From: a virus
DNA: 40,776 nt
Direction: 5' to 3' (one strand)
Virus genome (UHGV): UHGV-0210060
The position numbers and the translations under genes were made by a program. Positions 38,923 to 40,776 of this stretch are shown one piece after another. Every line of letters begins with the position of its first letter. The first letter of the stretch is position 1. The notes beneath the pieces were generated by a model. The model was not told where the DNA came from. It was given only the letters and a program-made list of their open reading frames with translations, and searched no databases.

Positions 38923-39395
38923 GCCTCAATCTCTCTGACCGTTCCGCCTGCTTCTTTGAATTTTGCAATCAGGCGGTCAGCCTTATGCTCGAACTGACCA
39001 TAACCAGCCCCCGGAAGTGAAGCCCAGATATTACTGCAACGGTCGATTGCCTGACGAATATCACCGTGGTCAATCATCGGTAAAGCGCCACGCTCCTTAA
39101 TCTGCTGCAGTGCAACTGCGTCCTGGCTTTTCGGAGAGAAATCTTTCAAGCCAAGCTGCTTACGATAGGCATCCCACCAACGGGAAAGAAGCTGGTAACG
39201 TCCTGCGGCTGTTGATTTGAGTTTTGGGTTTAGCGTGACAAGTTTGCGAGGGTGATCGGAGTAATCAGTGAATAGCTCTCCGCCTACAATGACGTCATAA
39301 CCATGATTTCTGGTTTTCTGACGTCCGTTATCAGTTCCCTCCGACCACGCCAGCATATCGAGGAACGCCTTACGTTGATTATTGATTTCCACCAT
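38919..39395 (-). CDS. R: endolysin R (lytic transglycosylase)
   Basis: 158 aa; [51 protein letters not shown]... is near-identical to lambda R. Confidence 0.95.
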
Positions 39396-39702
39396 CTTCT
39401 ACTCCGGCTTTTTTAGCAGCGAAGCGTTTGATAAGCGAACCAATCGAGTCAGTACCGATGTAGCCGATGAACACGCTCGTTATATAAGCGAGATTGCTAC
39501 TTAGTCCGGCGAAGTCGAGAAGGTCACGAATGAACCAGGCGATAATGGCGCACATCGTTGCGTCGATTACTGTTTTTGTAAACGCACCGCCATTATATCT
39601 GCCGCGAAGGTACGCCATTGCAAACGCAAGGATTGCCCCGATGCCTTGTTCCTTTGCCGCGAGAATGGCGGCTAACAGGTCATGTTTTTCTGGCATCTTC
39701 AT
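39379..39702 (-). CDS. S: holin S (dual-start)
   Basis: 107 aa beginning [35 protein letters not shown]..., near-identical to lambda S. Confidence 0.95.
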
Positions 39703-40002
39703 GTCTTACCCCCAATAAGGGGATTTGCTCTATTTAATTAGGAATAAGGTCGATTACTGATAGAACAAATCCAGGCTACTGTGTTTAGTAATCAGATTTG
39801 TTCGTGACCGATATGCACGGGCAAAACGGCAGGAGGTTGTTAGCGCAACCTCACGCCACCCGCTTTCACGAAGCCAGCCATTGCGCTGGTTTTCTTTTAT
39901 GCAAAGCACACCGCACCGTAGCCACAGCGGATAAGGTGATTATTTTGGTCTGTCTGGTATTTGGTTTGATGTGCTTTCAGAAAGGCCGTGCTTAAAACGC
40001 AA

Positions 40003-40030
40003 AAAGCCCCGAGCTATTAACTCAGGGCTT
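40003..40030 (-). terminator. tR'-like intrinsic terminator ~55 nt downstream of pR'
   Basis: Minus strand GCCCTGAG-ttaatag-CTCGGGGC + TTTTT. Confidence 0.7.
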
Positions 40031-40064
40031 TATTTAACGAGTGCATTTATCCATCGTTGGGTCA

Positions 40065-40093
40065 AATTTACCCAAATTTATTCAAAAAGTCAA
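40065..40093 (-). promoter_or_regulatory. late promoter pR' with qut region
   Basis: Minus strand TTGACT-17-TAAATT followed by ACGATGGATAAATGCACTCG, closely similar to the lambda pR' initial transcribed region. Confidence 0.75.
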
Positions 40094-40135
40094 TATTATG
40101 CCGTTAATATGTTGCCATCCGTGGCAATCATGCTG

Positions 40136-40759
40136 CTAACGTGTGACAGCATTCAAAATGTTGTCTGCGATTGACTCTTCTTTGTGGCATTGCACCACCA
40201 GAGCGTCATACAGCGGCTTAACAGTGCGTGACCAGGTGGGTTGAGTAAGGTTTGGGATTAGCATCGTTACAGCGCGATATGCGGCGCTTGCTGGCATCCT
40301 TGAATAACCGACGCCTTTGCATCTTCCGCACTCTTTCTCGACAACTCTCCCCCACTGCTCTGTTTTTGCTATATCAACCGCACGGCCTGTACCGTGGCAA
40401 TCTCTGCACCTTGCTCCCGGCGTCGCGGCACTACGGCAATAATCCGCATAAGCGAATGTTGCGAGCACTTGCAGTACCTTTGCCTTAGTATTTCCTTCAA
40501 GCTTTGCAACGCCACGGTATTTCCCCGATACCTTGTGTGCAAATTGCATCAGATAGTTGATAGCCTTTTGTTTGTCGTTCTGGCTGAGTTCATGCTTACC
40601 GCAGAATGCAGCCATTCCGAATCCGGCTTGTGATTGCGCCATCCCCATAGCAGCCATCACATCAGTACCGGAAAGAGAGTCAGAAGCCGTAGCCCGTGGT
40701 GAGTCGCTCATCATCGGGCTTTTTGGCGAATGAAATTTAGCTACGCTTTCGAGTCTCAT
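40136..40759 (-). CDS. Q: late antiterminator Q (lambda type)
   Basis: 207 aa; MRLESVAKFHSPKSPMMSDSPRATASDSLSGTDVMAAMGMAQSQAGFGMAAFCGKHELSQNDKQKAINYLMQFAHK... essentially lambda Q. Confidence 0.95.
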   Translation of the reverse strand: MRLESVAKFHSPKSPMMSDSPRATASDSLSGTDVMAAMGMAQSQAGFGMAAFCGKHELSQNDKQKAINYLMQFAHKVSGKYRGVAKLEGNTKAKVLQVLATFAYADYCRSAATPGARCRDCHGTGRAVDIAKTEQWGRVVEKECGRCKGVGYSRMPASAAYRAVTMLIPNLTQPTWSRTVKPLYDALVVQCHKEESIADNILNAVTR

Positions 40760-40776
40760 CGTCTTCCCCTCTTGCC

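Follow-up and report, generated by a model that had tools for sequence, protein, structure and literature searches.

Late transcription in lambdoid phages depends on a Q cassette, which comprises the Q gene, the promoter pR', a Q-binding element, a sigma-dependent pause element, a terminator and the late genes (10.1101/2022.03.25.485794). The Q protein of lambda binds between the -35 and -10 elements and loads onto polymerase paused at +16/+17. Together with NusA it then builds a nozzle at the RNA exit channel, which blocks formation of terminator hairpins (10.1101/2022.03.25.485794). The function of the -10-like pause element has been described (10.1101/2022.03.25.485794, PMC9191641), the scrunched pause follows the consensus TNYG, and positions +16 and +17 influence both pause capture and pause lifetime (PMC9191641). 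The promoter pR' is constitutive, and the RNA terminated in lambda, the 6S RNA, is present in lysogens (10.1101/2024.10.31.621285). The Q proteins of lambda and P22 are interchangeable (PMC8022706). The late promoters of phages 21, phi80, 82 and P22 also give short RNAs regulated by antitermination (work from the 1970s to the 1990s cited in PMC7547250); for the short late RNA of P22, the experimental basis used here is this secondary citation together with the GenBank annotation.

The window (the whole stretch of DNA that was analysed, 40,776 nucleotides of the virus genome UHGV-0210060) very probably carries a Q-dependent late regulatory cassette of a lambdoid phage in a short-leader form, as judged from homology. 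All features of the late control region are on the minus strand (Table 1).

Table 1. Features of the predicted late control region and lysis genes in the window.
Feature	Position	Strand	Basis
Q late-gene antiterminator gene	40136..40759	-	207 aa ORF; homology to lambda Q and P22 gp23; PF03589
Predicted late promoter pR' (P-late)	40065..40093	-	Consensus scan; hexamers identical to lambda and P22
Predicted start and pause element	40053..40058	-	Identical to lambda and P22
Expected pause site (+14..+17)	40042..40045	-	TGCA in the window, TTCG in lambda
Leader segment without lambda counterpart (+24..+185)	39874..40035	-	Lambda alignments
Predicted intrinsic terminator tR' (t-late)	39994..40031	-	Scan, folding, P22 and Emek annotation
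Leader block common to lambda, directly upstream of S	39703..39873	-	Alignments
Holin S	39702-39379	-	107-codon ORF; lambda S-type, PF05106
Endolysin R	39395-38919	-	158-codon ORF
Rz	38922-38455	-	155-codon ORF

The Q protein is identical to lambda Q at 206 of 207 positions (99.5%) and to P22 gp23 at 202 of 207, and it matches the Pfam family Antiterm (PF03589, E = 1.3e-57). Its gene lies immediately upstream of pR', whose -35 element begins 43 nt past the end of Q. Both promoter hexamers, the -35 TTGACT (40093-40088) and the -10 TAAATT (40070-40065), are the same as in lambda pR' and in P22 P-late, and so is the distance between them. The 17-bp spacer (40087-40071) contains the predicted 13-bp Q-binding element and is identical to lambda at 15 of 17 positions; the effect of the two substitutions was gauged from natural polymorphism among relatives, in which both positions vary. 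At one position of the spacer (position 12, in the Q-binding region, 40076) the window has a T, lambda an A, most relatives a G and a few a C. The T is absent from the other 124 sampled qut sites (the listed IMG/VR loci and the references). The transcription start is placed at 40058 by homology with the start annotated in P22 (the 5' nucleotide of late RNA in the P22 RefSeq record), and the sigma70-dependent pause element AACGAT occupies +1 to +6, identical in lambda and P22.

The original prediction had placed a promoter and a hairpin at 40003-40093 and described the -35/-10 and the initial transcribed sequence as close to lambda pR'. The same coordinates were returned by our scan, on the minus strand, and the likeness holds: between the end of Q and +23 the window aligns base for base with lambda pR', with 19 of 23 positions identical from +1 to +23. 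Consensus promoter matches alone are not above chance in the window (2 found, versus 2.4 expected in shuffles), so the case for the promoter stands on this homology and on the position adjoining Q.

The four differences from lambda in the initial transcribed sequence fall at +9, +11, +15 and +17 and are fixed in every short-leader copy seen. The prediction that the Q-engagement region is conserved thus needs to be narrowed, as qut is kept relative to lambda but carries these four fixed changes. Compared with the pause consensus T+14 N Y+16 G+17, the window keeps T+14 and Y+16 and has an A at +17, where lambda has a G. An A at this position predicts a pause less stable than that of lambda. Given the viability of phages P22 and HK97, the pause site of the short allele evidently works.

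Downstream of the pause site is a strong candidate terminator. Its stem extends from 40031 to 40003, with a G-C core at 40028-40006 (+31..+53), and is followed by a U-run at 40005-40001 (+54..+58), then by GCG and by UUUU to 39994. The consensus terminator scan describes it as a hairpin of 13 pairs, six of them G-C, with a 3-nt loop and the tail TTGCGTTTTA; the hairpin and the U-run together span +28 to +61. With a folding energy of -19.1 kcal/mol (z = -5.4 versus dinucleotide shuffles), the hairpin is the joint third strongest when both strands are cut into approximately 40,700 overlapping 37-nt windows (mean -5.2, sd 3.1). Of the four strongest, it is the one with the most T directly past the stem (5 of 8), although the U-run is only five U long ahead of GCG. 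RNA release is expected near +58 to +62. A strong terminator had been anticipated about 55 nt downstream of the start; the hairpin is borne out, and the predicted RNA becomes slightly longer, at 58-62 nt.

In 54 of 63 short-leader relatives the folding energy of the hairpin is -19 kcal/mol or lower. No compensatory double changes were found among the 19 distinct variants of these 63 relatives, only single or loop changes; the relatives are too alike, and the comparison therefore provides no covariation evidence either way. The 30-nt terminator core AAGCCCTGAGTTAATAGCTCGGGGCTTTTT is also identical in two otherwise unrelated phages, Hafnia phage Meifeng (locus L125, 1501-1536) and Pantoea phage AH01 (locus L126, 1501-1530). 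The Meifeng copy is just ahead of two tRNA genes and a holin, the AH01 copy is past an endolysin, and neither has a lambda-type pR'. The terminator core thus seems to move as a small module by itself.

The comparisons show directly that the elements match lambda and P22 in sequence, and they show the strength, conservation and position of the hairpin. We infer promoter activity, pausing, termination and Q-dependent read-through at this locus from the work on lambda and P22. RNA polymerase would start constitutively at pR' and would pause near +16 as a result of sigma70 binding again, to the -10-like AACGAT (+1 to +6). Without Q, the polymerase would escape and terminate about 60 nt from the start, freeing a short RNA, and S, R, Rz and the virion genes would stay silent. 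Once accumulated, Q would bind between -35 and -10 and load with NusA on the paused polymerase, where it would act as a nozzle on the RNA exit channel such that terminator hairpins could not form. The hairpin sequence starts only at +28, past the loading site, and the short distance should therefore be no obstacle to Q.

The leader differs from that of lambda in its length and its content. In lambda, approximately 170 nt of unrelated sequence precede tR', giving the 194-nt 6S RNA, and are followed by the LPR2 region. In the window, the sequence from +24 to +185 is unrelated to lambda and takes the place of the lambda 6S body, tR' and the LPR2 region. Near-identity returns from 39873 onwards, over the last 171 nt before the start of S, and S itself is also common to both. 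The distance from pR' to S is 356 nt in the window versus about 600 nt in lambda, where the interval is approximately 245 nt longer. Of the lambda 6S body (lambda 44588-44781), only +1 to +23 aligns with the window, the remainder being absent. The LPR2 northern probe (Silverman et al. 2024 supplement) maps to a hairpin, GAGCCTGGTTAGCCAGTGCTCTTTCC, just past lambda tR' (about 1010-1060 of the lambda locus L003, lambda 44810-44860), in lambda DNA that is absent from the window. Both the 6S body and LPR2 are in the lambda segment missing from short-leader phages. These alignments agree with what had been predicted from the sequence of the window, namely that the next 150 nt or so differ from lambda, that similarity returns upstream of S, and that neither the short terminated RNA nor the tR' distance is conserved relative to lambda; the reading as a lambda-type pR'/qut with an early intrinsic terminator and a leader unlike the 6S RNA is supported by both the lambda and the P22 alignments. 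Of the checks proposed with the prediction, the alignment to lambda was run, and it separates a matching pR'/qut from a differing leader body. The consensus terminator scan misses lambda's own tR', the stem of which is broken by a large inner loop, so the scan is unusable for comparing terminator distances between the two alleles.

Holin and lysin features are annotated at the matching place in HK140, and downstream of S, R and Rz, on the same strand, are P22-like terminase, portal and coat genes. Several other structures were seen around the leader. About 125 nt ahead of S, in sequence that lambda also has, is a minus-strand hairpin (39826-39862, GGCGTGAGGTT GCGCTAAC AACCTCCTGCC then GUUUUGCC, -17 to -20 kcal/mol), which is followed by GUUUU; one mismatch and the shortness of the U-run kept the scan from picking it up. 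This hairpin may act as a second, weak terminator or be a structure in the mRNA. A terminator-like hairpin also occurs at 39870-39893 on the plus strand, in antisense orientation to the late leader (GAAGCCAGCC ATTGCG GCTGGTTTT then CTTTTAT; -12 kcal/mol, z = -3.7). Its P22 counterpart (38078-38053) has other stem bases and still forms 9 pairs, and lambda is without it. The interval between S and this antisense hairpin yielded no plus-strand promoter. A strong plus-strand hairpin followed by TTTTT (40685-40721, -19.1 kcal/mol) lies antisense within the 5' end of Q and matches the position of the 'a23' antisense-RNA terminator annotated in P22 and of the lambda paQ antisense transcript. A 51-aa GTG-start ORF lies on the minus strand at 39909-39754 and is labelled 'hypothetical' in HK140. 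With no match in Pfam and an overlap with non-coding sequence that lambda shares, it is probably not a gene. An Rfam scan of 39300-40776 gave only sub-threshold chance matches (NsiR1, rimP leader and others), far under the gathering scores.

To place the short leader among its relatives, IMG/VR was scanned for the lambda-type -10 and pause element, which gave at least 120 loci. With the window and four reference phages, the 125 listed qut sites fall into exactly two leader alleles, 56 of them long and lambda-type (AACGATGGGTTAATTCGC...) and 69 short (AACGATGGATAAATGCAC...). The short leader is thus slightly commoner than the lambda 6S-type leader among the sampled sites. Both alleles are found with every common promoter-spacer variant among the sites listed, so the alleles recombine freely. 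From +1 to +57 the short allele is almost invariant, with 19 variants among the 63 complete copies. At least six unrelated downstream sequences start right past the U-run in short-leader relatives, which shows that Q, pR' and qut are passed on together with the terminator as a single module. Some short-leader hybrids run on with the lambda post-tR' sequence GCACAACAGGTAAGAGCATT, which shows that the terminator sits at the position of lambda tR'. At a larger scale, the short leader was detected in approximately 264 of 5,426 complete E. coli genomes, counting those with 80% or more of 39960-40100, and in 88 phage records (69-nt stretch). The lambda 6S body was detected in 413 of the 5,426 genomes and in 30 phage records, a set apart from the short-leader phages.

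Besides being the by-product of a gate, the terminated leader RNA of about 60 nt could also be a trans-acting prophage sRNA, constitutive in lysogens and similar to StxS, although we consider this unlikely. Terminated pR' RNAs can be Hfq-bound regulators, as described for StxS (PMC7547250), and the lambda 6S RNA is Hfq-associated and present in lysogens (10.1101/2024.10.31.621285). The predicted RNA would have a suitable shape, with an A/U-rich 5' portion that stays free and, at the 3' end, a G-C hairpin carrying a U-tail, although this tail is short (five U). The leader is nearly invariant over 63 relatives, but the flanking Q gene and promoter are equally invariant, so its conservation is not specific. 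No Rfam family was found at threshold for the leader RNA, which is also missing from a 2025 review of phage sRNAs (PMC12197685), and a text search of the literature for the terminator and leader sequence found no paper. The likeness to StxS consists in a short, constitutive RNA from an antitermination-controlled late promoter in lysogens (PMC7547250); StxS differs in being a 258-nt precursor processed to 74 nt, and Hfq binding and targets were shown for StxS. We are similarly doubtful of the proposal that the RNA of about 60 nt is an unrecognised regulatory sRNA replacing 6S and LPR2. If the predicted termination holds, the RNA would be constitutive in many P22-like lysogens of Salmonella as well as in approximately 5% of E. 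coli strains. Separately, the A at +17 may give a shorter Q-loading pause than that of lambda.

There is only a slight chance that the hairpin is mainly a two-way insulator and not a Q-controlled gate. As an insulator it would end unmodified early rightward transcripts leaving Q and block antisense entry into Q. Such a role would suit its location, 105 nt past the stop codon of Q, and the A-run and T-run flanks permit a hairpin on the opposite strand followed by UUUAUUU (-13.5 kcal/mol), but this opposite-strand hairpin is weaker and has a poor U-run. Furthermore, there is no other strong sense-strand terminator between pR' and S, and a constitutive pR' needs one. An insulator role is also compatible with the tR' role, to which it would add without replacing it.

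A 9-codon frame on the minus strand (40016-40046, +13 to +43) starts with an ATG at +13, encodes MHSLNKALS and stops within the terminator loop. It is very improbable that this frame couples translation to termination such that ribosomes, and not Q, set the read-through. The ATG is found at +13 in every short-leader copy and in 49 of 63 relatives the stop of the frame falls in the hairpin loop, but the only candidate ribosome-binding sequence is a weak GGA 3 nt ahead of the ATG, single-base variants change the length to 2, 7, 9 or 51-74 codons, and leaky late expression would harm a prophage. We also rejected the frame from +13 as a coding sequence, since the copies range from 2 to 74 codons in length. 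With the one extra base that P22-type loop variants carry, the frame extends to 51-74 codons, and some records (e.g., UAB_Phi20 and epsilon34 gp63) list it as a hypothetical protein.

Finally, the idea that the promoter and hairpin have no function, being decayed remnants or mere chance matches, which could appeal to a consensus promoter match no more frequent than in shuffled sequence, has a negligible probability and is effectively refuted by the base-for-base homology to the experimentally defined lambda pR'/qut, by the location between an intact Q directly upstream and intact lysis genes downstream, and by the presence of the site in the viable phages HK97, HK022 and P22.

The interval 39700-40140 matches 179 phage records, with HK140 the closest (98.6%), followed by HK544, HK106, mEp234, Emek, HK022, HK97 and the P22 group. 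Over the 69 nt from +1 through the terminator, the window is 100% identical to HK97, HK544 and mEpX2 and 95.7% identical to P22. HK97, HK544, mEpX2, HK140 and HK022 are siphoviruses, whereas the virion genes of the window are P22-like (Kapi1, phiv205-1, CUS-3). From its gene content, the window is a P22-like E. coli podophage mosaic, so a P22-type leader is found in expected company. In the records of HK97, HK544, mEpX2, HK140 and HK022 the promoter and qut are annotated and the terminator is left out. As most records of short-leader phages give the promoter and qut without the terminator, this would be an easy annotation fix.

The distribution of the two leaders also has consequences for lambda. 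In sequenced phages the lambda-type Q is more often paired with the short leader than with the 6S-type leader, which makes lambda atypical. The 6S and LPR2 segment is dispensed with by many phages that have essentially the same Q and qut, and this bears on whether its role is core or accessory.

The closest described system is P22, whose RefSeq record annotates the homologous 'P late or PR'', 'qut' and the 5' nucleotide of late RNA. At +31..+59 the same record annotates 't late or tR'; antiterminated by gene 23 protein action to allow full late transcription', and the Emek record labels the same hairpin a rho-independent terminator. P22 and the window are the same in the promoter hexamers, in +1 to +40, in the terminator stem, in the U-run and in the distance between promoter and terminator. 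They differ by one spacer base in the Q-binding region, by one base between -10 and +1, and in the terminator loop, which is AAT in the window and UUAACC in P22, where there is one extra base. Past the terminator, the P22 leader is roughly 70% similar up to a common block ahead of the holin gene, and the holin of P22 (gene 13) differs from that of the window. The arrangement is thus already known: it is the late leader of the P22/HK97/HK022 type, annotated in P22.
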